NCBI GenBank assembly: GCA_028716965.1
Contig: JAQUOV010000004.1
Coordinates: 76,298 to 140,297, forward strand
Length of the DNA: 64,000 bases
Origin: Candidatus Omnitrophota bacterium
GTDB lineage: Bacteria > Omnitrophota > Gorgyraeia > Gygaellales > Profunditerraquicolaceae
Direction of reading: 5' to 3'
Shown: in pieces, positions 2,405-59,692 of the stretch
Layout: each line of letters starts with the position of its first letter
Position numbering within the stretch: position 1 is the stretch's first letter
Position numbers and translations under genes: made by a program
Notes under the pieces: generated by a model
Told to the model about the DNA's origin: nothing
The model's input: only the letters and a program-made list of their open reading frames with translations
Database searches by the model: none

Positions 2405-3100
2405 ATGAAAAATAATTTTCTCAAAGCCTTATTGGTTTTATTTATAACTTTAGGTTTGGCGGGATGCAGTTTTGTTTTTCAAAAGGGCAGGCGTTCCGAC
2501 GCCGAGAAGATCCAGGAGCTAAACGCCCAGCTGGATGAACTTTTGAGCTCAAAGAGCATGCTTGAACAGAAGTTAGGACAAGAGATAAATGACAGGCAGA
2601 TAAAGCTCCAAATGATGGAGAAGGGCCTGGTGATTACCGTCGTAGGCGACCTTTTGTTTGATTCCGGAAAAGCCAGTATCAGGCCGGAGGCGTATCCTTT
2701 ACTGAACAAGGTAGCCTCGGTATTGAAAGATAACATGGCACAGTTTAACATAGGCATAGAAGGGCATACGGATAATGTTCCGATCAAGGTATCAGGCTGG
2801 AAATCCAACTGGGAGCTTTCTACCGCGCGCGCCTTAAGTGTTCTGCATTATTTAGTCAAAGAACAGGGGATCTCTCCCGAACGTTTATCCGCAATCGGTT
2901 ATGGAGAATACCGGCCGGTAGATTCTAACGAAACAGCAGCAGGCCGTAAGCAGAATCGCAGGGTGGAGATTGTTATCCTGCCTAATGTTACCAAGGTTAA
3001 AAGCGGCTCTAATGGCCCGGTAGCGGTGAAAGATTCTGAAGAAAGCTCCGATACCACCGGTTCATCGGAACTTAAAGAACCCATAGATAATCTCAAATAA
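2405..3100 (+). CDS. OmpA/MotB-family lipoprotein (peptidoglycan-binding OmpA_C domain)
   Basis: Signal peptide plus lipobox LAGC; coiled-coil segment; C-terminal TDNVP...NRRVEIVIL OmpA_C signature. Confidence 0.8.
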   Translation: MKNNFLKALLVLFITLGLAGCSFVFQKGRRSDAEKIQELNAQLDELLSSKSMLEQKLGQEINDRQIKLQMMEKGLVITVVGDLLFDSGKASIRPEAYPLLNKVASVLKDNMAQFNIGIEGHTDNVPIKVSGWKSNWELSTARALSVLHYLVKEQGISPERLSAIGYGEYRPVDSNETAAGRKQNRRVEIVILPNVTKVKSGSNGPVAVKDSEESSDTTGSSELKEPIDNLK

Positions 3101-14277: not shown

Positions 14278-16437
14278 ATGCCCAAGGGAAAGAAAGAGAA
14301 AGCAGCAGTAAAGAAAACAGCTAAGCCTAAGGCCGCCGCGCAGAAGCGCGCGGAGCGCGCACCGGCTCACAAAATTGCTTCTAAAGGCCATGCCTTGAAA
14401 CCCAAAGCTGTGGTTAAGCCGCTTAAAACTAAAGATGCCGTTAAGAAGAAAAAGGAAGAAGTAAAGCCGGCAATCAAACATGCGGTAAAACATGAGCCGA
14501 AGGCCGAGCCTAAAATAGAGATTAAGCCTGTGCAGAAGCGCGCGGAGCGCGCACCGGTTCATCCGGCAGAGACTGCGCATAAGGAAGAAGTAAGGCCGGT
14601 CCATGGCCCCGAGGTTAAAGCCAGGGTAGCCCATGAGGTAAAACCGGAACCCGCCCCTGAAGCCAAAGTTGAAACTGTCCCGAGCAGGGAGATTGAGATT
14701 GAGCTGCCGATTACGCTTAAAGATTTGTCCGTAAAATTACAGGAGAAATCAAGTGTTCTCATAAAGCATTTTATGAATATGGGGATGATGGTCGGGATCA
14801 ACCAGTTTTTGGATGAAGGAGCCGTAAATAAACTGTGTTTAAAGTATGACTGCAGGATCAAGAAAGCCCTTGGTGCCGAAGAATCAGCCTTGCAGGAGCA
14901 TAAAGAAAAAGATAAGCCCGGTCAGCTTAATAAGCGTTCTCCCATCGTTACTTTTATGGGGCATGTTGATCACGGTAAGACCTCTCTTCTTGATGCCATA
15001 CGTAAAACCAAGGTTGCAGAAGGCGAGCACGGAGGGATTACCCAGCATATCGGCGCTTACCGGGTCAGCCTCCCCGAGGGTGCAATTACTTTCTTGGATA
15101 CGCCCGGCCATGAAGCATTTACCGCTATGCGCGCCCGCGGCGCGCGGATTACCGACATCGTAGTTTTGGTTGTTGCCGCAGACGACGGGATTATGCCGCA
15201 GACCCAGGAGGCAATTGACCATGCCCGGGCTGCAGGAGTATCTATTATTGTAGCCATAAATAAGATAGATAAGCCGCAGGCAAATATAGAGATGGTCAAG
15301 AAACAGTTATCTCAAGCCGGCCTGACAGCTGAAGATTGGGGCGGAAAGACGATCACTGTGCCTGTATCCGCCAAGACAGGTTCGGGAATAGATAATCTGC
15401 TTGAAATGATCCTTTTGCAGGCGGAGATCATGGAGTTAAAAGCAAACCCCAGCCGCCTGGCTTGCGGTGTGGTAGTTGAGGCAAAAATGGCTAAGGGCAG
15501 AGGGCCGGTAGCTACGCTTCTTGTGCAAAACGGAACTTTACACCTTAACCAGAATATAATTGTGGGTAATCTTTACGGAAAGATCAGGGCGATGCTGGAT
15601 GACCGCGGGCAGTCAGTGACTGTTGTCGGACCTGCTTCTCCCGTTGAGGTATTGGGGGTAAGCGGGATCCCCCAGGTAGGCGAGCAGTTTTTTGTGATTG
15701 AAGATGAAAAGCAGGCCAAGGGTTTAGTCCAGGCGCGCGTGGAAAAAGAGAGGCAGCAGCAGATAAAGAGCGTAAAAAGGGTAAGCCTGGAAGACCTGCA
15801 TACTCAAATTGCCGAGGGGAAGATCAAAGAATTAAAGCTGATTATTAAATCTGATGTCCAGGGGTCGCTGGAAGCAATCAAGGATACGCTGGATAAGTTA
15901 AATGTCTCTGAAATAAAGATTGATGTGATCCATACCGGAGTAGGCAATATTAATAATTCAGATGTAATCCTGGCGGTAGCCTCCGATGCCTTGATCGTAG
16001 GCTTTAATGTCAGCGCTGATGAGTTAGCTAAAGAGTTGATCTCCAAGGAGGGGATTGAAGTAAAAATATACAATATAATCTATGAGCTGGCCAATGATAT
16101 AAAAGCCGCTGTGGAAGGCATGCTTGACCCTAAGCTGAAAAGAGTGTTTTTAGGCAAGGCGGAGGTTAAGAAGATGTTTAAGCTTTCCCGTTCCGGGTTG
16201 ATCGCCGGCTGCATCGTAACCAAGGGCAAGATTAACCGTAACAGCCTGGTGGCGCTGGTGCGTAATGGCGAGGTTGTCTTTGAAGGCAAGCTTTCAAGCC
16301 TGAAGCGTTTTAAGGATGATGTGCGCGATGTCGCCGAAGGGTTTGAGTGCGGGATAGCTATCAGCGGTTTTGACCAGCTGATGGAGGGTGATGTTATTGA
16401 GGCATATGAAATAGAAAAGATCGCCAGGAAACTATGA
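14278..16437 (+). CDS. infB: translation initiation factor IF-2
   Basis: GHVDHGKT G1 motif, DTPGH, NKID; lysine/alanine-rich N-terminus containing two near-identical QKRAERAP repeats. Confidence 0.95.
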
Positions 16438-22044: not shown

Positions 22045-22061
22045 TATTTTGCTCTCGGGAT

Positions 22062-22199
22062 ATTGTTCGCGTGCGAAAATTTTCGCCGAGTGCTTCGGTT
22101 TACGTCTCGCTACGGCTACAGTATACTTACGCTGGTAAGATTCTGCCTCCGCTCGACGTAATTCCTCGCACTCTTTTGCCGAAAATTTTCTAATGCACG
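22062..22199. repeat. MITE-like element: imperfect ~25-30-nt terminal inverted repeats (gcgtgcgaaaattttcgccgagtgc / gcactcttttgccgaaaattttctaatgcacgc) around a ~75-nt core
   Basis: Arms read directly. Each arm contains the self-palindrome gcgaaaattttcgc / gccgaaaattttc. The core contains taagattctgcctc, related to the 5' motif of the rplS/rpmE leader family. Confidence 0.4.
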
Positions 22200-22237
22200 C
22201 TCCACAATATCCCTCGACAAAATATCTATAGATAGAA

Positions 22238-23608
22238 TTGACATTCGCGGCAAACTCGCAATTGGCGTTTAGTGATATAGAATCACGAGTTAAGAATATC
22301 ATGGATAAGCTGAAAAATATCTTTAAGAAAAATTCTATTCATTCCGGAAAAGACATAATAAAGAAATGCTATAATTTCTCTTTGTCCGAAATATATGAAT
22401 TTATACTATCTTTATATTTAGAAATTGAAAAAAATGCATATCGCAGTAGTGAAATATTAACAGAGTCTGTTTATTTGAGCACATCCGCTGTTGGATTATC
22501 TCAATTCTGTTCTTCTCCTGAATGCCGTATCAATCGGATTCAAAAAACACTAAAGTCATCTTTGCTTTTGTCCGATAGAGTGTTTATAGATAATCCTTTA
22601 GAGCGCATTGCAAATATAGAACCCAGTAGAGATACGTCGGTATTAAGATCTAATTATTGCTCAGATTTACTTTACATATATTACATTGTTAGTCTTTTGG
22701 ACATGGGTGTACTGATTAATTTACCTAGATGGGTAACTGTATGTAAGCATTGTAAAAGGCAATTAACAAAATCGATAAACGAAACCGAGAAACTGATTTT
22801 GCTAAAGAAAAAGTACTTCTATGAGCTAATGAAAAATGAATTTACAGGCAGTCTAAAATTCGATAGAGACCATTGGGAGGTATTTTATGAAGGGAACCTC
22901 AATCTAATTCCAGATGCTCATCCCATGGTAATAAATATGTTAAAAATACCAAATAAATTAAAAAAATTAAGAAATAGCCGTGTAACATTTAATGACTTTA
23001 TGAAATTTGGTCTGCCTGACAATATTATATACGATCTAATCAGTAATGCGATTTTATATTTGCCATATAAAAGCCGACATGGATTAAACGCTTTAGTTAC
23101 AAATGAACTAGAAGCGAGTATTTTTAATCAATTAATAATGGGTAAAGATAACAAAAAACACGAAATACCGTTTATTAATTTTGATGATATCAATTTAGGT
23201 AGTTTAATAAAGGCAAGGCATAAGCAACCCGAGGAGTTTCAGAATTTTCGGAAGGAAATTAATAAAGTTATTAAAGAAATTAGATTAGGTAATGGAAGCC
23301 AGACAAATGATAAGAATTCACAATTGAATGTTTTCATTAGACAGGAGATTAGCAAAAATTTAAATCGTCTTAATGCCAAGATAAATCATTATACAGGTGA
23401 TCAATTGAAGAAGGCGTTGCAAAGGGGGTTGATGGTTGGGTCTATACTTGGAATTGGTGCTTATACGGGTGTATTGCCAAATTCCGCTCAAATTTTAGTA
23501 TCAGCTAGTCTTGGAATATTACCGCATACTGCAGTAGGATTACTTAACAGAAAAGATGCAATAAAGAATGATAACTGGTATTTTTATTGGCAACTAGCAA
23601 AGAAATAA
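22238..23608 (+). CDS. AT-rich orphan protein with C-terminal glycine-zipper transmembrane hairpin (candidate horizontally acquired toxin/defence-like effector)
   Basis: Long ORF with strongly AT-biased codons unlike all neighbours. TTG start at 22238, or an ATG at 22301 preceded by a TGnTATAGA-like extended -10. No recognisable catalytic domain. The C-terminal 60 aa contain two hydrophobic segments with GxxxG spacing. Confidence 0.55.
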   Translation: MTFAANSQLAFSDIESRVKNIMDKLKNIFKKNSIHSGKDIIKKCYNFSLSEIYEFILSLYLEIEKNAYRSSEILTESVYLSTSAVGLSQFCSSPECRINRIQKTLKSSLLLSDRVFIDNPLERIANIEPSRDTSVLRSNYCSDLLYIYYIVSLLDMGVLINLPRWVTVCKHCKRQLTKSINETEKLILLKKKYFYELMKNEFTGSLKFDRDHWEVFYEGNLNLIPDAHPMVINMLKIPNKLKKLRNSRVTFNDFMKFGLPDNIIYDLISNAILYLPYKSRHGLNALVTNELEASIFNQLIMGKDNKKHEIPFINFDDINLGSLIKARHKQPEEFQNFRKEINKVIKEIRLGNGSQTNDKNSQLNVFIRQEISKNLNRLNAKINHYTGDQLKKALQRGLMVGSILGIGAYTGVLPNSAQILVSASLGILPHTAVGLLNRKDAIKNDNWYFYWQLAKK

Positions 23609-23656
23609 GGGTGACGATTTTTGATTTGTATAGCGGATGGCTTGGATTGTTTCCAA

Positions 23657-23800
23657 GCAGGGCGTTTGCAGGCCGAGCGGGCAAGGTTACCCGGCTATAT
23701 ACGAAGTAGGTAGAGCGAGGCCGAAACCCGAGCGAAGTTTGCCTCGCCGGGGCAAACGAGCGTCCCTGCGGGAAACAAGACAAGACAGACGCGTTAATAT
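23657..23800 (+). repeat. GC-rich structured intergenic element, copy A (candidate cis-regulatory RNA/ncRNA or miniature repeat)
   Basis: About 130 nt aligning with the reverse complement of 55493-55618. Shared blocks are cagggcRtttRcaggccgRgcRggcaWgg, cccgagcgaag, a 7-bp hairpin with compensatory changes (gtttgcc/ggcaaac versus gcctgcc/ggcaggc), and a 3' tail gaaacaagacaa(gaca)gacgcgtta. It ends 10 nt before the tgt ATG. Confidence 0.5.
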
Positions 23801-23809
23801 TGGGAAAGT

Positions 23810-24922
23810 ATGTTTACTTTAATTCATAAAGACAAAAATAGTAAAGCTAGGTTGGGAAAGCTGGTAACTGCGCATGGGGAGATTGATACTCCCGCATTTA
23901 TGCCCGTAGGCACGCATGCTACGATTAAAGGCCTCATGCTTAAGGATGTGGAGGAGGCGGGGGCGCAGATAATTTTGTCAAATGCTTATCATGTGTTTCT
24001 GCGTCCGGGCATAGAGACGGTTAAGAAGGCCGGCGGCTTGCACAAATTTATGGGCTGGGATAAGCCGATACTAACGGATAGCGGAGGGTACCAGATCTTT
24101 AGCCTTGCGCTTTTCCGCAAAATGCATGACCGGGGCGTAGAATTTCAGTCGCATATAGACGGCCTGAAGCATTTCCTTACCCCCGAAGACGTAATTAAGA
24201 TCCAGGAGGATTTAGGTTCGGATATCATCATGCCGCTTGATGAATGCGTGCATTATCCATGTACGCGCGACCAGTCAAAAATAGCAATGGAGAGGACGCT
24301 TGCCTGGGCAAAAAGGTCAAAAGAGGCCTATCATAAAGAAAAACAGGCATTGTTTGGAATTATTCAGGGGGCTACTTATGAGGACCTGCGCAAAGATTGC
24401 GCCGGGCGCATGGTTGATATGGATTTTGACGGTTATTCCATCGGCGGAGTTTCTGTTGGCGAGTCCAGCAATTTAATATATAATATCATTGAGCTGGTCA
24501 GCGGCTTGCTCCCGGAAGATAAACCGCGTTATGCCATGGGTATCGGCTATCCGTTTGATATAGTAGAAGCCGTGGACCGCGGCGTGGATATGTTTGATTG
24601 CGTAATCCCCACGCGTTACGGCAGGAACGGTACGGCTTTTACAAGCAGCGGCAAGGTGATCATCCGTAACTCTTCCTATGCCGAAGATTTCCGGCAGCTG
24701 GATGCCAAATGCGGCTGTTATGTCTGTAAGAATTTTTCCCGGGCGTACCTTAGGCATTTATTCAATGCTAAGGAGATGCTGGGGTTGATTTTGCTTAGTT
24801 TTCATAATGTCTATTTCTTCCTGGATTTAATGCGCCAGATCCGGCAGGCGATAAAAGAGGATAAGTTCAGCCAGTTTAAACAGATCTTTTTAAGCGGCTA
24901 CAATAACCAGATATGCGCATAG
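23810..24922 (+). CDS. tgt: queuine tRNA-ribosyltransferase
   Basis: TPAFMPVGT, zinc site CxCxxC...H near the C-terminus; full length. Confidence 0.95.
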   Translation: MFTLIHKDKNSKARLGKLVTAHGEIDTPAFMPVGTHATIKGLMLKDVEEAGAQIILSNAYHVFLRPGIETVKKAGGLHKFMGWDKPILTDSGGYQIFSLALFRKMHDRGVEFQSHIDGLKHFLTPEDVIKIQEDLGSDIIMPLDECVHYPCTRDQSKIAMERTLAWAKRSKEAYHKEKQALFGIIQGATYEDLRKDCAGRMVDMDFDGYSIGGVSVGESSNLIYNIIELVSGLLPEDKPRYAMGIGYPFDIVEAVDRGVDMFDCVIPTRYGRNGTAFTSSGKVIIRNSSYAEDFRQLDAKCGCYVCKNFSRAYLRHLFNAKEMLGLILLSFHNVYFFLDLMRQIRQAIKEDKFSQFKQIFLSGYNNQICA

Positions 24923-28464: not shown

Positions 28465-29112
28465 ATGGAAATGGATAAATTCCCTTTTGGAGCGGCGGTA
28501 AATTTCGGATGGCGCAAGGTTAAAGAAAACTTCTGGAGCCTGGTCATTATTACCATCATCTGGGTGGCAATCGTCGGTATTCTTAATTCTTCCGCCAAGA
28601 ACTTAGAGAAAACCATGCCCGTGATTTCTTTTCTTTTAAGCCTCTGCGCAACGCTGGTTAATATGGTTATTACCATGGGAGTGACCAGGATAGGGCTGAA
28701 GATTTACGCCGGAGAAAAGTTCAGCATCGCCGGGATGTTTTACTGCGGAGGTGAGCAGGCCCTTAATTATTTTGTCGCCTCCATCCTTTACTTTCTTGCG
28801 GTATTGGCCGGTCTTATCCTTTTGATCGTACCCGGGATCATAGTAATGATCAGGATGGGCCTTTATCTGTATCTTATCGTGGATAAGAAAATGGGGATAA
28901 TTGATTCCCTTAAGGAAAGCATGAAGCTGACCAAGGGAAATGCTTTTAACCTTTTCCTGTTCTGGTTACTTTTGTTGGGTGTAATATTGCTGGGCTTTTT
29001 AGCTTTATTCGTAGGCATACTTGTGGCTATTCCCGTAACTATATTAGCCTATGTTTTTGTCTATCGTTACCTGGAAAGCAGGAAACAACCGGCCTTTGCC
29101 CAGCAATCATAA
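28465..29112 (+). CDS. polytopic membrane protein of unknown function, embedded in the C1 cluster
   Basis: At least four predicted TM helices; no catalytic motif recognised. Confidence 0.5.
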   Translation: MEMDKFPFGAAVNFGWRKVKENFWSLVIITIIWVAIVGILNSSAKNLEKTMPVISFLLSLCATLVNMVITMGVTRIGLKIYAGEKFSIAGMFYCGGEQALNYFVASILYFLAVLAGLILLIVPGIIVMIRMGLYLYLIVDKKMGIIDSLKESMKLTKGNAFNLFLFWLLLLGVILLGFLALFVGILVAIPVTILAYVFVYRYLESRKQPAFAQQS

Positions 29113-29119
29113 ATAATGG

Positions 29120-29190
29120 GCATGCTCCAAAGGCAGGACCCCGGGGCGTAATAGGCGAGAAACAAAACAAGACAGACGCGTTAGGATCCA
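29120..29190 (+). repeat. partial copy of the GC-rich structured element (3' half), ending 10 nt before the metF-like start
   Basis: ggggcgtaataggcgagaaacaaaacaagacagacgcgtta aligns with the 3' tail of copy A; 17 nt are identical (acaagacagacgcgtta). Confidence 0.35.
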
Positions 29191-55417: not shown

Positions 55418-55447
55418 TGAACTTACTCCTTATTAATTAGTCTCATA

Positions 55448-55475
55448 AGTATACTTGAAATTACGGCATTGTCAA
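55448..55475 (-). promoter_or_regulatory. sigma70-like promoter for rpmB (TTGACA-16nt-TATACT on the minus strand)
   Basis: Read on the reverse complement; GGAG RBS at 55421-55430. Confidence 0.5.
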
Positions 55476-55492
55476 GATAGAATATAAATGCG

Positions 55493-55618
55493 CCTGGTTT
55501 GTCTTGTTTCTTGCAGAGGCGCTTGCCTGCCCCAGCGTGGCAGGCTTCGCTCGGGTCGGCGGCGTCGCTCTCCGCCTTCGGCGGAACCATGCCTGCCCGG
55601 CCTGTAAATGCCCTGTTT
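55493..55618 (-). repeat. GC-rich structured intergenic element, copy B (same orientation as rpmB, upstream of its promoter)
   Basis: Reverse complement aligns block-by-block with 23657-23800, including the covarying hairpin and the aaacaagacaa tail. Confidence 0.5.
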
Positions 55619-55723
55619 AAATGTAGTTGCCAATCCATCCGCGTAATTTGCGTACGTTTAAGCACGGTTTAGACAGTAGCATTTAGATGTAGGCAATGAT
55701 GGATAAAAACAATTAGTAGATGT

Positions 55724-56959: not shown

Positions 56960-59692
56960 ATGAGAACAGAAAAGATTGCCTGCGTTTCGGTATTGACCGG
57001 GCCTTTAAAAGGCCGGGAATTTCCGGTTAAATCAGATTCTCCCGTATTAATAGGCAGGGATGATCATACGACTATTAAGATTGCTTACGATGATTATTGC
57101 TCAAGAAAGCACGCGATAATTTATCTTGAGGGCATGATCTGCCTTATTGAAGATTTAAACAGCGCCAATGGTACGCTCCTGAATAATACCCTTATCCACG
57201 GAAAGAATGAATTAAAAGATAAAGACGTTATAGGCCTCGGAGATACCAAGCTGGTTGTTTCTATAAAAGATTCTCTTAAGGAAGAAAGCATCGCGCCGGA
57301 TTTGGCTACTAACATAAAAACCGGTGATTCCATATACGGGCGTTATGAAGTGCATCATATCCTGGAAGCCGGGATAGGGATTGCCTGCGTCTGTTATGAT
57401 AATATAAACCAGGTTCCTTACGTACTGAAGACCCTGCAAAGAAAGTATTTGGTTTCCCCGCAAAGCCAATCCTGTTTTGAGAAGAAATCGCTTGCCTGGA
57501 TAGGGTTAGGCAAACATCCTTATATTGTCAGCGCCTATTTAGCCATCCGGATAGAAAACTACCCTTTTATTGTCCTTGATTATATTGTACCGGATGAGAA
57601 CGGGAGAAACAGCTTAAGCCATCTGCTGGGGAATCTAACTTTATCCGAGATCCTTAAATATTCAATAGAGTTTTGTTACGGCATGGAGCATGCTTACGCA
57701 AAAGGAATTGAGGCTCACGGAAATATAAAACCGAATAATATTATGATTACTCCAGATAAAGCCGTGAAGATAACCGATTTCGGGTTTGCAAAATTATCGC
57801 AAGAGATCGATTTTAACGAGCATATCCCGGAAAAAGAAGATTTGGATTTGGCTATTTTCAAAAGTAATAGCGGTGTAACCGCCGGCACGCTTCCTTATAT
57901 GGCTCCCGAGCAATTTGACGGACAGATGAACCAGCTAAGCGATATTTATTCTTTCGGCGTTGTCCTTTACCAGATGGCTAAGGCAGGGGCATTGCCTTTT
58001 AGCGGGAAGGGCCCATCGGAATACGAGAAGGCGCATAAGGAACAGGCAGCTGCTGGTTTTGACTCGCCTCTTTTTGCCATTATCAAGAAATGTTTGGAAA
58101 AAGACCCCGCTAAAAGATATATTGACTTTGCAGCGATGAGGATAGAGCTGCAGGAATTGCTTTTAAAGGAAACAGGGGAGAAGATAACTCTGCCGGAAGG
58201 CGCAAAGCTGGAATCTTGTGAAGCTATGAATAAAGGTGCTTCTTTATATTATCTCGGTAGGTACGAAGGGGGGATTGCCTGTTACGATAAGGCCATAGCC
58301 ATTAACCCCGCATATTCCGATGCCTATTATAACCGGGGCAATGCCTATTATGATAAAGGCGATCTTGTGCAGGCTGTCTCTGATTACAGCAAGGCCATAG
58401 AAATTAACCCCGCATATTCCAAGGCTTATTACAGAAGGGGAGTTTTCTATCATAGTAAAGGCAATCTTGTATTGGCTATCTCTGACTACAATAAAGCTAT
58501 AGAGATCAATCCCGCATATCCCGATGCCTATTATAACCGGGGCAATGCCTATTATGATAAGGGCGATCTTGTGCAGGCTGTCTCTGATTACAGCAAGGCC
58601 ATGGAGATCAGCCCTAAAGATGCCAAGGCTTATAAGGGCCGGGGTATTGCTCATTATAAAAAAGGAGAGCTTGAGCTGTCTATCTCTGATTATAATAAAG
58701 CTTTAGAGATCAACCCTAACGATGCCGAAGCTTACAGCAGCCGGGGGATTGCTTATTATAAGAAAGGTAAATTTGACCTGTCTATCTCTGACTACAATAA
58801 AGCTATAGAGATCAATCCCGCATATCCCAATGCCTATTATAACCGGGGCAATGCCTATTATGATAAGGGCGATCTTGTGCAGGCTGTCTCTGATTACAAT
58901 AAGGCCATAGAGATCAACCCTAAAGACGCCGAAGCTTACAGCAGCCGGGGGATTGCTTATTATAAAAAAGGAGATTTTGAAGAAGCTATCTCTGATTACA
59001 GCAGGGCAATAGCCATTAACCCCGCATATTCCAAAGCTTATTGTAACCGAGGCAATGCCTATTATGATAAAGGCAGCTTTGAACAGGCTATCTCTGATTA
59101 CAATAAGGCCATAGAGATCAATCCTAAAGATTCTGAAGTCTATAGAAGCCGCGGGGTCGCCTATCACGTTAGAGGCAACCTTGAGCAGGCTGTCTCTGAT
59201 TACAATAAGGCCATAGAGATCAACCCTAAAGACGCTAGAGCCTATAACAGCCGCGGGATCGCCTATTACAAAAAAGGCGATCTTGTGCAGGCTATCTCTG
59301 ATTACAGTAACGCCATAGAGATCAACCCTAAAGATGCCGAAGCCTATAACAGCCGCGGGATCGCCTATCACGTCAGAGGCAAACTTGAGCAGGCCATCTT
59401 TGATTTTAGCAGGGCTATAGCAATCAACCCGGAATATTCCAAGGCTTATTGTAACCGGGGAGGCGTCCATTATGATAAAGGGTATCTTGAAGAAGCTATC
59501 TCTGACTACAATAAAGCCATAGAGATCAACCCTGAATATTCCAAAGCTTATTGCAGCCGCGGGGCTGCTTATTTCTTGAAAAAAGACTATGATAAAAGCT
59601 GGAAAGATGTGCATAAGGCAGAAGAATTAGGATATAAGATCCCCATTAATTTGATTAATGATTTGAAAAAAGCTTCTGGTAAGGGGATTTGA
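56960..59692 (+). CDS. FHA domain - Ser/Thr kinase-like domain (probable pseudokinase) - 14x TPR repeat protein
   Basis: N-terminal FHA (GR...SRKHA...NGT). Kinase fold with DFG and APE present, but the catalytic loop reads HGNIKPNN instead of HRDLKPxN and no canonical glycine-rich loop. C-terminal half consists of 34-aa TPR units. Confidence 0.85.
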   Translation: MRTEKIACVSVLTGPLKGREFPVKSDSPVLIGRDDHTTIKIAYDDYCSRKHAIIYLEGMICLIEDLNSANGTLLNNTLIHGKNELKDKDVIGLGDTKLVVSIKDSLKEESIAPDLATNIKTGDSIYGRYEVHHILEAGIGIACVCYDNINQVPYVLKTLQRKYLVSPQSQSCFEKKSLAWIGLGKHPYIVSAYLAIRIENYPFIVLDYIVPDENGRNSLSHLLGNLTLSEILKYSIEFCYGMEHAYAKGIEAHGNIKPNNIMITPDKAVKITDFGFAKLSQEIDFNEHIPEKEDLDLAIFKSNSGVTAGTLPYMAPEQFDGQMNQLSDIYSFGVVLYQMAKAGALPFSGKGPSEYEKAHKEQAAAGFDSPLFAIIKKCLEKDPAKRYIDFAAMRIELQELLLKETGEKITLPEGAKLESCEAMNKGASLYYLGRYEGGIACYDKAIAINPAYSDAYYNRGNAYYDKGDLVQAVSDYSKAIEINPAYSKAYYRRGVFYHSKGNLVLAISDYNKAIEINPAYPDAYYNRGNAYYDKGDLVQAVSDYSKAMEISPKDAKAYKGRGIAHYKKGELELSISDYNKALEINPNDAEAYSSRGIAYYKKGKFDLSISDYNKAIEINPAYPNAYYNRGNAYYDKGDLVQAVSDYNKAIEINPKDAEAYSSRGIAYYKKGDFEEAISDYSRAIAINPAYSKAYCNRGNAYYDKGSFEQAISDYNKAIEINPKDSEVYRSRGVAYHVRGNLEQAVSDYNKAIEINPKDARAYNSRGIAYYKKGDLVQAISDYSNAIEINPKDAEAYNSRGIAYHVRGKLEQAIFDFSRAIAINPEYSKAYCNRGGVHYDKGYLEEAISDYNKAIEINPEYSKAYCSRGAAYFLKKDYDKSWKDVHKAEELGYKIPINLINDLKKASGKGI
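58244..59614 (+). repeat. array of ~102-nt (34-codon) tandem repeats encoding the TPR units, several copies nearly identical at the DNA level
   Basis: For example 58321-58380, 58525-58585 and 58825-58885 are almost identical; the repeats create the spurious 303-aa minus-strand ORF. Confidence 0.7.

Follow-up and report, generated by a model that had tools for sequence, protein, structure and literature searches.

Several families of short intergenic repeats have been described in bacteria, among them the REP, BIME and REPIN sequences of Proteobacteria, which are mobilised by RayT, and the ERIC, Correia (NEMIS), RUP and BOX elements, which are 100-200 nt in length and resemble MITEs (miniature transposable elements with inverted repeats). 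Elements of the Correia and ERIC types are transcribed together with adjacent genes and are able to influence how mRNA is processed. The bacteria of the Omnitrophota, a widespread phylum without cultured members, are very small and possibly predatory or parasitic; the non-coding DNA of the phylum has, to our knowledge, barely been described. A 64,000-nt stretch from a Candidatus Omnitrophota bacterium (assembly GCA_028716965.1, contig JAQUOV010000004.1, positions 76,298 to 140,297 of the forward strand; referred to below as the window) was analysed and found to carry a structured element, located upstream of tgt, metF and rpmB, which is a member of a previously undescribed high-copy intergenic repeat family of this candidate phylum. 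The element was found at the following places in the window:

23627..23797, plus strand: copy A, an intact full-length family member spanning covariance-model positions 1-172 (cmsearch 145.1 bits, E ~1e-42)
55485..55648, minus strand: copy B, a decaying member (cmsearch 96.5 bits, E ~1e-27)
29135..29187, plus strand: copy C, a 3' fragment which begins in the P4 loop, extends to the 3' arm and is internally deleted (repeat D18; nhmmer)

Copy A and the reverse complement of copy B were found to align end to end and, as had been claimed in an earlier reading made from the letters of the window alone (the sequence-only reading), block by block. The covariance-model scores of both lie well outside what chance would give. 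The arm shared by the two copies was identified by the repeat finder as a 76-nt inverted repeat (I1, 79%), and both copies were matched by nhmmer (E = 4.5e-54 and 8.6e-50) with a profile built from A and B, which hits only three places in the window (A, B and C). The element had been described as approximately 130 nt long and beginning at 23657; it is in fact approximately 165-171 nt in the window (165-175 nt in the family), and position 23657 falls within it. The 5' arm of copy A (GCGGATGGCTTGG...) begins at 23633 and its partner is the 3' arm ...CAGACGC (...CAAGACAGACGC, to 23792). The third, partial copy, which had been placed at 29120-29190, is a real 3' fragment of smaller extent (29135-29187); its 3' block (29155-29183) is 93% identical to copy A over 29 nt (D18; nhmmer E = 0.011), and it lies below detection in the covariance-model search of the window. 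The distance from GCGTTA to the ATG is the same at tgt and at metF, as had been noted, but is 13 nt rather than 10 nt. Copy B lies upstream of a promoter-like sequence, TTGACA-N16-TATACT (55475-55448), which is followed by rpmB (55417-55190). Two open reading frames (ORFs) which overlie copy B (55423-55665 and 55499-55672) look spurious.

Further copies were sought in genomes and metagenomes, and more than 150 were recovered. A genome pattern scan with CCCGAGCGAAG-N(24-44)-GAAACAARACAA returned 25 loci, 23 of which were full copies in Omnitrophota metagenome-assembled genomes (MAGs), with two to four copies in several of the MAGs; some of the matched MAGs are labelled Planctomycetales, and their flanks are orthologous to Omnitrophota MAGs. 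Matches in Flavobacteriia (L022 and L031; fetched loci are designated L followed by a number) and in a virus (L008) were rejected as chance matches within coding regions. A metagenome scan using an independent anchor on the 5' half of the element gave at least 120 stretches. The copies form 57 clusters with less than 80% identity between them, among which is a GC-rich lineage whose host is likewise Omnitrophota. A covariance model (R1) was then searched against approximately 1.1 Mb of fetched loci and detected 156 copies, all of them in Omnitrophota genomes or metagenomes, with two to three copies within a few kb of each other in at least 12 loci. Judged from the non-seed copies and the window, the density is roughly one copy per 30-50 kb. 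The copies are strictly intergenic, and none was found in the phage and plasmid collections IMG/VR, PLSDB and INPHARED.

The sequence-only reading had been unable to match the element to a known RNA family, and this was confirmed. Rfam 15 gave no match in the window at the gathering threshold, nothing better than E = 1 around copy A in a scan at E up to 10, and no match on the element in 20 diverse loci (E up to 0.1). No description of the family was found in Rfam or in the searchable literature, and the main Omnitrophota genomics paper makes no mention of repeats (PMC10066038).

The family consensus is (T)AGCGGATGGCTTGGCTTGTTTC-TAA-GCAGGGCG-T-TTGCAGGCC-GAGCGGGCA.GG-[P3a]-GAGCGA-GGCCGAAA-CCCGAGCGAAG-[P4: TTTGCC C.CGC.GGG GCAAA]-CGAGCG-N-CCCTGC-G.G-GAAACAAGACAAG.CAGACGC(TA), the 5' end of the element being (T)AGCGG. 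Its top strand forms a long rod (P1-P2) with conserved purine-purine mismatches, tandem G.A among them, and the rod carries at its end a three-way junction with P3, which bears a variable hairpin (P3a), and P4. Copy A folds as a closed rod when treated as a single sequence (-74.5 kcal/mol, z = -5.6), while the fold of copy B is poorer (z = -1.7). The parts of copy A are as follows:

23633..23654, plus strand: 5' arm of P1, GCGGATGGCTTGGATTGTTTCC, which pairs with 23770-23792 with purine-purine mismatches including tandem G.A; its ends are closed in the single-sequence fold
23657..23664, plus strand: 5' strand of P2, GCAGGGCG, which pairs with 23761-23769 (CGTCCCTGC, one base bulged)
23665..23727, plus strand: P3 domain, with stem TTTGCAGGCC/GGCCGAAAC, internal loop GAGCGGGCAAGG / GAGCGA and the variable hairpin P3a
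23687-23712, plus strand: P3a hairpin, TTACC...GGTA, variable, inside the P3 domain
23727..23737, plus strand: invariant junction strand, CCCGAGCGAAG
23737..23757, plus strand: P4 hairpin, GTTTGCC-TCGCCGG-GGCAAAC, helix 8 of the family fold
23770..23792, plus strand: 3' arm of P1, GGGAAACAAGACAAGACAGACGC; it is with this end that the element borders on tgt, whose ATG is at 23810

This fold is kept by compensatory changes across highly divergent subfamilies. In a model-based alignment of 115 copies, 91.4% of cells were paired compared to 68.2% in shuffled alignments, double (compensatory) changes were observed in 38 of 41 pairs, and the covariation score was 0.548, compared to 0.147 for shuffled alignments (none of 500 shuffles reached the observed value) and 0.07-0.12 in slid registers. 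As this alignment was fitted to the model, the counts lean somewhat towards the structure, but the slid controls agree with them, as does an RNAalifold prediction on 54 diverse copies aligned with MAFFT, in which P2, P3a and P4 were predicted with compensatory changes in 20 of 30 pairs. Support extends to all eight helices, the long outer stem P1 among them (helices 76-93% paired, double changes in all pairs). P2 (helix 5) is 94.8% paired with compensatory changes in six of eight pairs, for example GGG/CCC to GCA/TGC; P3 (helix 6) shows double changes in four of four pairs, as does P3a (helix 7, 96.7% paired); and P4 (helix 8) is 97% paired with compensatory changes in seven of eight. The hairpin in which compensatory substitutions had first been noticed (GTTTGCC/GGCAAAC in copy A, GCCTGCC/GGCAGGC in copy B) is real and is P4 of the family-wide fold, and the selection on structure deduced from it is upheld by very strong covariation among the 115 copies. 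The gtaggtagag motif, previously taken as an insertion in copy A, is the 3' side of P3a, a hairpin whose length varies from copy to copy.

The most conserved part of the element is internal. The strings AGCGGGCA.GG and GAGCGA were invariant in 54 sequences, and CCGAGCGAAG was invariant in alignment A2, an invariance that is partly forced as this string served as a search anchor. The termini (P1) differ completely between subfamilies. The joints of the three-way junction hold four invariant GAGCG motifs, each located after the 3' strand of a helix, and these might associate in twos to give CGAGCG duplexes containing sheared G.A pairs. On the top strand the mismatched positions of the rod are purine-purine (tandem GA/AG, G.A and G.G), and within the modelled pairs 206 purine-purine mismatches were counted as against 88 pyrimidine-pyrimidine, a bias which defines a functional 'top' strand. 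G.U was no commoner than A.C (117 and 96 of 4514 cells, respectively); this near equality is unlike typical RNA families and is expected if most mismatches reflect neutral decay or if pairing matters at the DNA level. The loop of P3a ranges from 3 nt to 15 nt between copies, and a mini-variant (L015) is without the P3 domain. In one subfamily (L063:837-1088, L102, L112, L114, L124, L150 and L087) approximately 50 extra nt, CCCTTCGTTACCACTCAGGGCTTCGTCCTGAGCAAAGCGAAGGACGAAG, lie between CCCGAGCGAAG and P4, and this segment has its own hairpin and a second GCGAAG motif.

The sequence-only reading had described the element as oriented with the genes downstream of it. Among the 156 copies, however, those located between tandem genes comprised 43 in the sense and 44 in the antisense orientation, an outcome which that reading had itself listed as speaking against its proposal. 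Orientation was likewise even when set against that of the majority of local genes (55:59) or against GC skew (54:60), the latter being a weak test of replication direction as skew tracks gene strand in these genomes. The 228 nearest proteins fell into 164 clusters, the largest with six members, and the recurrent neighbours are unrelated housekeeping genes (ruvB, tmk, crcB, tgt, recJ/rpmB, a heptosyltransferase, an addA-like gene and leuS), which reflect orthologous sites in different species; metF and glycosyltransferases are also among the neighbours. No Pfam family had more than three members among 136 distinct proteins on the 5' side, where transposases, integrases and reverse transcriptases were not enriched. 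No positional promoter signal was observed in 109 unique 5' flanks except for a weak TTTA at -4 to -1, which extends P1. A consensus scan of copy A found no promoter-like site within approximately 55 nt upstream and no excess of sites over shuffles, nor did copy A show a terminator-like site, an anti-terminator or any arrangement able to sequester a ribosome-binding site. A role as a riboswitch or leader of tgt, metF or rpmB was rejected on orientation and neighbour diversity; the near spacing to tgt and metF follows from a general tendency of the 3' end of the element to abut genes of either orientation. The sequence-only reading was thus partly supported: a novel structured element is upheld, a gene-oriented cis-acting RNA is not.

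Comparison of gene order placed both plus-strand copies of the window at the edge of variable DNA. For Tgt, the best-matching homologues (91% identity and below) come from Candidatus Omnitrophota, and a look-up of the exact Tgt protein of the window gave no record. Two relatives (L001 and L005) have in common the order queA-[gap]-tgt-trmD-rplS-rnhB-...-folD-metF-CODH/ACS. The queA-tgt gap is a variable hot spot, which in one relative holds a 280-aa orphan ORF and HigB/HigA and in the other a restriction-modification set (DNA methylase/Vsr/HNH). In the window the gap (22050-23610) is an AT-rich island with a GC content of 0.29-0.34, compared to 0.45-0.49 in its flanks, and the island ends at copy A. 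The relative with the 91% identical Tgt also has a copy in this gap (L001:9012-9175), on the opposite strand of which a 172-aa 'gene' without a Pfam hit has been called (L001:8953-9471, minus strand); this is probably a spurious ORF arising from the GC-rich repeat. Two ORFs of the window lie on the 5' side of the element:

22238..23608, plus strand: 456-aa orphan ORF, AT-rich and strain-specific, on the 5' side of copy A, which follows 20 nt later; no Pfam or PADLOC hit
28465..29112, plus strand: 215-aa membrane ORF that separates folD from metF and lies 5' of fragment C; its similarity to DUF975/UPF0259 is weak and below curated Pfam cut-offs

The 456-aa ORF is read as the variable 'cargo' of the queA-tgt gap; it was compared with the 280-aa ORF upstream of the L001 copy, and the two are unrelated. 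In L001 and L005 folD and metF are adjacent or overlapping, and both the 215-aa ORF and fragment C are absent. Taken together, the synteny of the gap and the folD-metF insert place A and C alike at the junction of a strain-specific inserted ORF and a core gene. The 215-aa ORF insert also splits a row of Wood-Ljungdahl-related genes (FTCD_C, folD, metF and CODH/ACS).

The same polarity was observed across the family: the 3' end of the element abuts conserved housekeeping genes, and the 5' side faces AT-rich variable DNA. The median distance from the 3' end to the start or stop codon of the next gene is approximately 20-30 nt, compared to approximately 100 nt from the 5' end. Over 300 nt the 5' flank was the AT-richer in 78 copies and the 3' flank in 36 (GC 0.44 vs 0.47, p = 3e-5), and the bias persisted at 1 kb (50 vs 27, p = 0.004). 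Eight independent divergent pairs were found with their 5' ends facing inward, 9 nt to 2.1 kb apart, as against one convergent pair. The segments enclosed by such pairs have a GC content of 0.30-0.42, and their genes are orphans or resemble defence genes (a PDC-S31 candidate, SIR2-like, DUF5677, a pseudopilin and one RayT). In a gap of the queA-tgt type in L042 the arrangement is [E<-][two orphan genes][->E][two orphan genes][->E][tgt], where E is the element; mixed orientations within a locus (- + +) occur both there and in L119. In L141 (1842-2207) and L134 (4555-4917) two full copies are arranged head to head, the 5' ends towards each other across gaps of 9 and 19 nt, respectively, and each pair forms a palindrome of approximately 350 nt.

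Copies were also found to decay and to fragment. Those detected by the covariance model only, and so free of anchor bias, range from 134 down to 29 bits. Copy B has an 11-nt insertion and G-to-A changes at otherwise invariant or near-invariant positions and, compared to the near-identical strain in L154, a further 8-nt deletion in the outer stem P1 which is specific to the window strain. In L012 and L088 fragments of the 5' end lie beside full copies. Orthologous sites hold copies of different subfamilies; those upstream of tgt in the window and in L042 have a common 5' junction (GATTTGTATA|GCGG) and differ in P3, P3a and P4. The combination of one junction with different subfamilies suggests replacement or gene conversion at this site rather than stepwise change.

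Other palindromic repeat families, termed U1 and U2, adjoin the 5' side of the element in 28 of 150 copies, and nesting of the element with other repeats is seen. The U1 repeat, an imperfect palindrome, is approximately 190 nt long, GATATTTTGCTCTCGGGATATTGTTCGCGTGCGAAAATTTTCGCCGTGCGC...GCGCACATTTGCCGAAAATTTTCTAATGCACGC...GGCAAAATATC, often located directly 5' of the element (L027:1860-2049 and the 5' flanks in L021, L054, L130, L053, L096 and L017). U2 lies next to the element and has inverted ends, GAATGAACCTGG..TTTCTCGCTCAGGTCGATTTT ... AAAATCGACATTCGCTGCGAAATTTAT..CCAGGTTCATTT (L024:6734-7019 and the 5' flanks in L121, L088, L059, L126 and L071). The GC-rich lineage has a module of its own on the 5' side, approximately 200 nt long and beginning with an inverted copy of the 3' arm of the element.

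Known modes of mobility were compared with these data. No target-site duplication was found: the longest direct repeat in the flanks averages 3.56, the null being 3.47 +/- 0.08. This result speaks against a DDE-type MITE. Neither a parent insertion sequence nor a transposase was found near the 156 copies, and the ends of the element are inverted repeats (P1) that differ between subfamilies. TnpA, TnpB and IscB, sought as indicators of an IS200/IS605-type or PATE element, were absent among the neighbours of the same 156 copies. One inverted pair (L063) encloses a RayT-family gene (2424-2954, minus strand; Y1_Tnp, 28.9 bits), whose homologues are named RayT and which encodes a true Y1 transposase. 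Four further distinct RayT loci with homologues of this gene, at least three of them from Omnitrophota, have no copy of the element within 3 kb, and the L063 RayT has its own classical REP hairpin, GTAGGGGCGGG...CCCGCCCCTAC; mobilisation by RayT was rejected on these two observations. REP-like hairpins with a GTAG head occur at L063:3130-3165, beside the RayT gene, and in L061, in the 5' flank of its copy (GTAGGGGCGGGTTTAAAACCCGCCCCTAC; GTAGGGGAGGTTGAAACCTCCCCTAC). It appears that the new repeat exists alongside a conventional REP-RayT system.

The reading favoured here, with moderate confidence, is of a structured, non-autonomous repeat, the core of which is recognised in trans in the form of folded single-stranded DNA or RNA; the repeat sits at, and perhaps creates, the boundaries of variable insertions. 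The element would be selfish or recombinogenic; the folded single strand of its conserved core would be recognised by a factor encoded elsewhere in the genome; it would spread or be exchanged by a duplication-free route, such as single-strand or site-specific recombination or gene conversion between copies; and it would mark, and perhaps mediate, the edges at which variable genes are inserted. At tgt and metF we infer that it is simply where an inserted strain-specific ORF meets the core gene, and not a regulator. A number of points weigh against this reading. Mobility is putative: no pair of empty and filled sites that would define the inserted unit was present among the fetched loci, and no mobilising enzyme was identified near the 156 copies. 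In classical inverted-repeat elements bound by a transposase the ends are conserved, the opposite of the invariant core and varying termini seen here. In several divergent lineages the position of intact copies upstream of tmk, crcB and tgt is the same, and such retention could reflect selection on individual copies. The purine-rich junctions, tandem G.A, optional hairpins and the mini-variant resemble a functional RNA with tertiary structure. In addition, the copies were ascertained by core sequence anchors, which inflates the apparent invariance of those anchors, and the genes of the census were called with a simple ORF caller with the elements masked.

Two explanations would make the element an RNA. 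Multi-copy genes for a structured non-coding RNA, transcribed independently of their neighbours and serving as a scaffold in a protein complex or in the manner of a guide RNA, would account for the invariant core with variable, covarying peripheral helices throughout the phylum, for rod mismatches that are consistently purine-purine on one strand, for the varying length of P3a, the optional insertion at P4 and the mini-variant, and for GC-rich islands within AT-rich intergenic DNA; random orientation would also be expected. Such genes would not be expected to show polarity towards AT-rich cargo or inverted pairs around genes, and the weak TTTA at -4 to -1 is no promoter signal, terminators are absent, no partner protein gene is linked, G.U is not favoured over A.C and many copies are decayed or truncated; this explanation is regarded as unlikely, and among the rivals it is given the most weight. 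A cis-regulatory RNA (a riboswitch or leader) in the 5' untranslated region of tgt, metF, rpmB and other genes could draw on the strong covariation, on the GC-rich and highly structured character of the element (z = -5.6 for copy A) and on sense copies whose ends lie 2-40 nt ahead of a start codon, those of tgt, metF, tmk and crcB being examples. It is scarcely credible in the face of the 43 sense and 44 antisense copies, downstream genes that share no function, the lack of a terminator, anti-terminator or sequestered ribosome-binding site, the near equality of G.U and A.C, the decay and fragmentation of copies, and close relatives that express tgt and metF without the element.

REP and Correia elements have been reported to act as hairpin transcription barriers, as stabilisers of mRNA 3' ends or as insulators, and a host-domesticated boundary element of this kind, working in either orientation and separating acquired AT-rich genes from core genes, would fit a very stable rod, placed a few to approximately 30 nt from the start and stop codons of core genes, between these and AT-rich islands, and retained at orthologous sites in several lineages. 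A generic barrier would need neither an invariant three-way-junction core nor strand-specific G.A motifs, no U run follows the element, copies such as B decay unreplaced, and the proposal explains the retention of copies and not their multiplication; it ranks next in weight and is also considered improbable. Lower again, and doubtful, is the proposal that the element is the folded single-strand site of recognition and recombination in an unrecognised Omnitrophota gene-cassette system, a functional analogue of attC or of Xer-dependent modules. The invariant GAGCG three-way junction would in that case be the binding site of a trans-acting enzyme by which AT-rich orphan and defence genes are inserted, or exchanged, between housekeeping genes, leaving the 3' end of the element at the core-gene boundary and inverted pairs around the cargo; if true, this would be a new mechanism of gene mobility. 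A REP/REPIN-type element mobilised by a RayT (Y1 HUH) transposase would be in keeping with the L063 pair, with the head-to-head doublets 9-19 nt apart (L141 and L134), with a strand-specific fold and with the missing target-site duplication. It is very improbable given the four RayT loci without a copy within 3 kb and the separate REP hairpin of the L063 RayT; in addition, the element is five to eight times the length of a REP and has no GTAG head, and its orientation is independent of GC skew.

The element is odd among bacterial repeats in that a branched internal core, and not the ends, is conserved phylum-wide, which points to a trans-acting partner. By marking the edges of variable, defence-like gene insertions it may be used to find such islands, and as an abundant repeat which creates spurious ORFs, such as the 172-aa 'gene' of L001, it is worth masking when MAGs are annotated. 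For screening, the family shows that strong covariation alone does not identify a riboswitch or an RNA gene; here the statistics of orientation and turnover were decisive.

Some further observations were made in passing. In the window, eleven tandem 102-nt units (58282-59601; 34 codons, 69-78% identical) lie in a 910-aa ORF (56960-59692), and the 102-nt period fits a TPR-type repeat protein, as judged from the repeat length. A 30-nt direct repeat (14340-14369 and 14532-14561; 97% identical, 192 nt apart) lies in a lysine-rich ORF and encodes AQKRAERAP. Rfam matches unconnected with the element were found on related Omnitrophota contigs, namely a c-di-GMP-I-GGC riboswitch (L067:1707-1798, 72 bits) and a 5S rRNA (L057:1006-1122).

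Among known systems, HEARO/omega-RNA (of IscB and TnpB) and the IS110 bridge RNA are similar in being multi-copy, highly structured and non-coding, in that solo copies are possible and in having first been found as orphan motifs; they differ in that none of the 156 copies adjoins an IscB, TnpB or IS110-type gene, in that their Rfam models do not match, and in that the closing stem here joins both ends of the element and leaves no obvious guide segment. Integron attC sites and the element are alike in having the character of folded single-strand recombination sites, under selection on structure more than on sequence, and in their close placement behind a variable ORF that has no promoter and ahead of the next gene. 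A subset of copies (A, C, L017, L018, L028, L030 and L032) ends in CGC-GTTAAR or GTTAGG, resembling the GTTRRRY of attC, while most end in CGC-WAAA paired to TTTW-GCG. The attC sites are, however, simple two-armed hairpins of 57-141 nt with extrahelical bases, found in one-orientation arrays next to intI, in contrast to the mixed orientations, inverted pairs and conserved junction core of the present element, near which no integrase is enriched. From ERIC, Correia, RUP and BOX elements it differs in that their terminal inverted repeats are conserved and Correia duplicates TA, whereas here the termini vary and no duplication was found, and in that no parent insertion sequence is known for the Omnitrophota element; it shares with them its size, a long imperfect hairpin over the whole element, location in either orientation near gene ends, and variation by insertion and deletion. 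The REP/BIME/REPIN sequences are simple hairpins of 20-40 nt with a GTAG head, compared to approximately 170 nt with a three-way junction and an invariant internal core, and they belong to another taxon, the RayT genes tested here not being flanked by the new element. Both are nevertheless high-copy, GC-rich, strictly intergenic palindromic repeats with a strand-specific hairpin and no target-site duplication, which occur as singles and inverted doublets and persist and evolve within lineages, and it is REP, ERIC and Correia elements that the Omnitrophota element loosely resembles.

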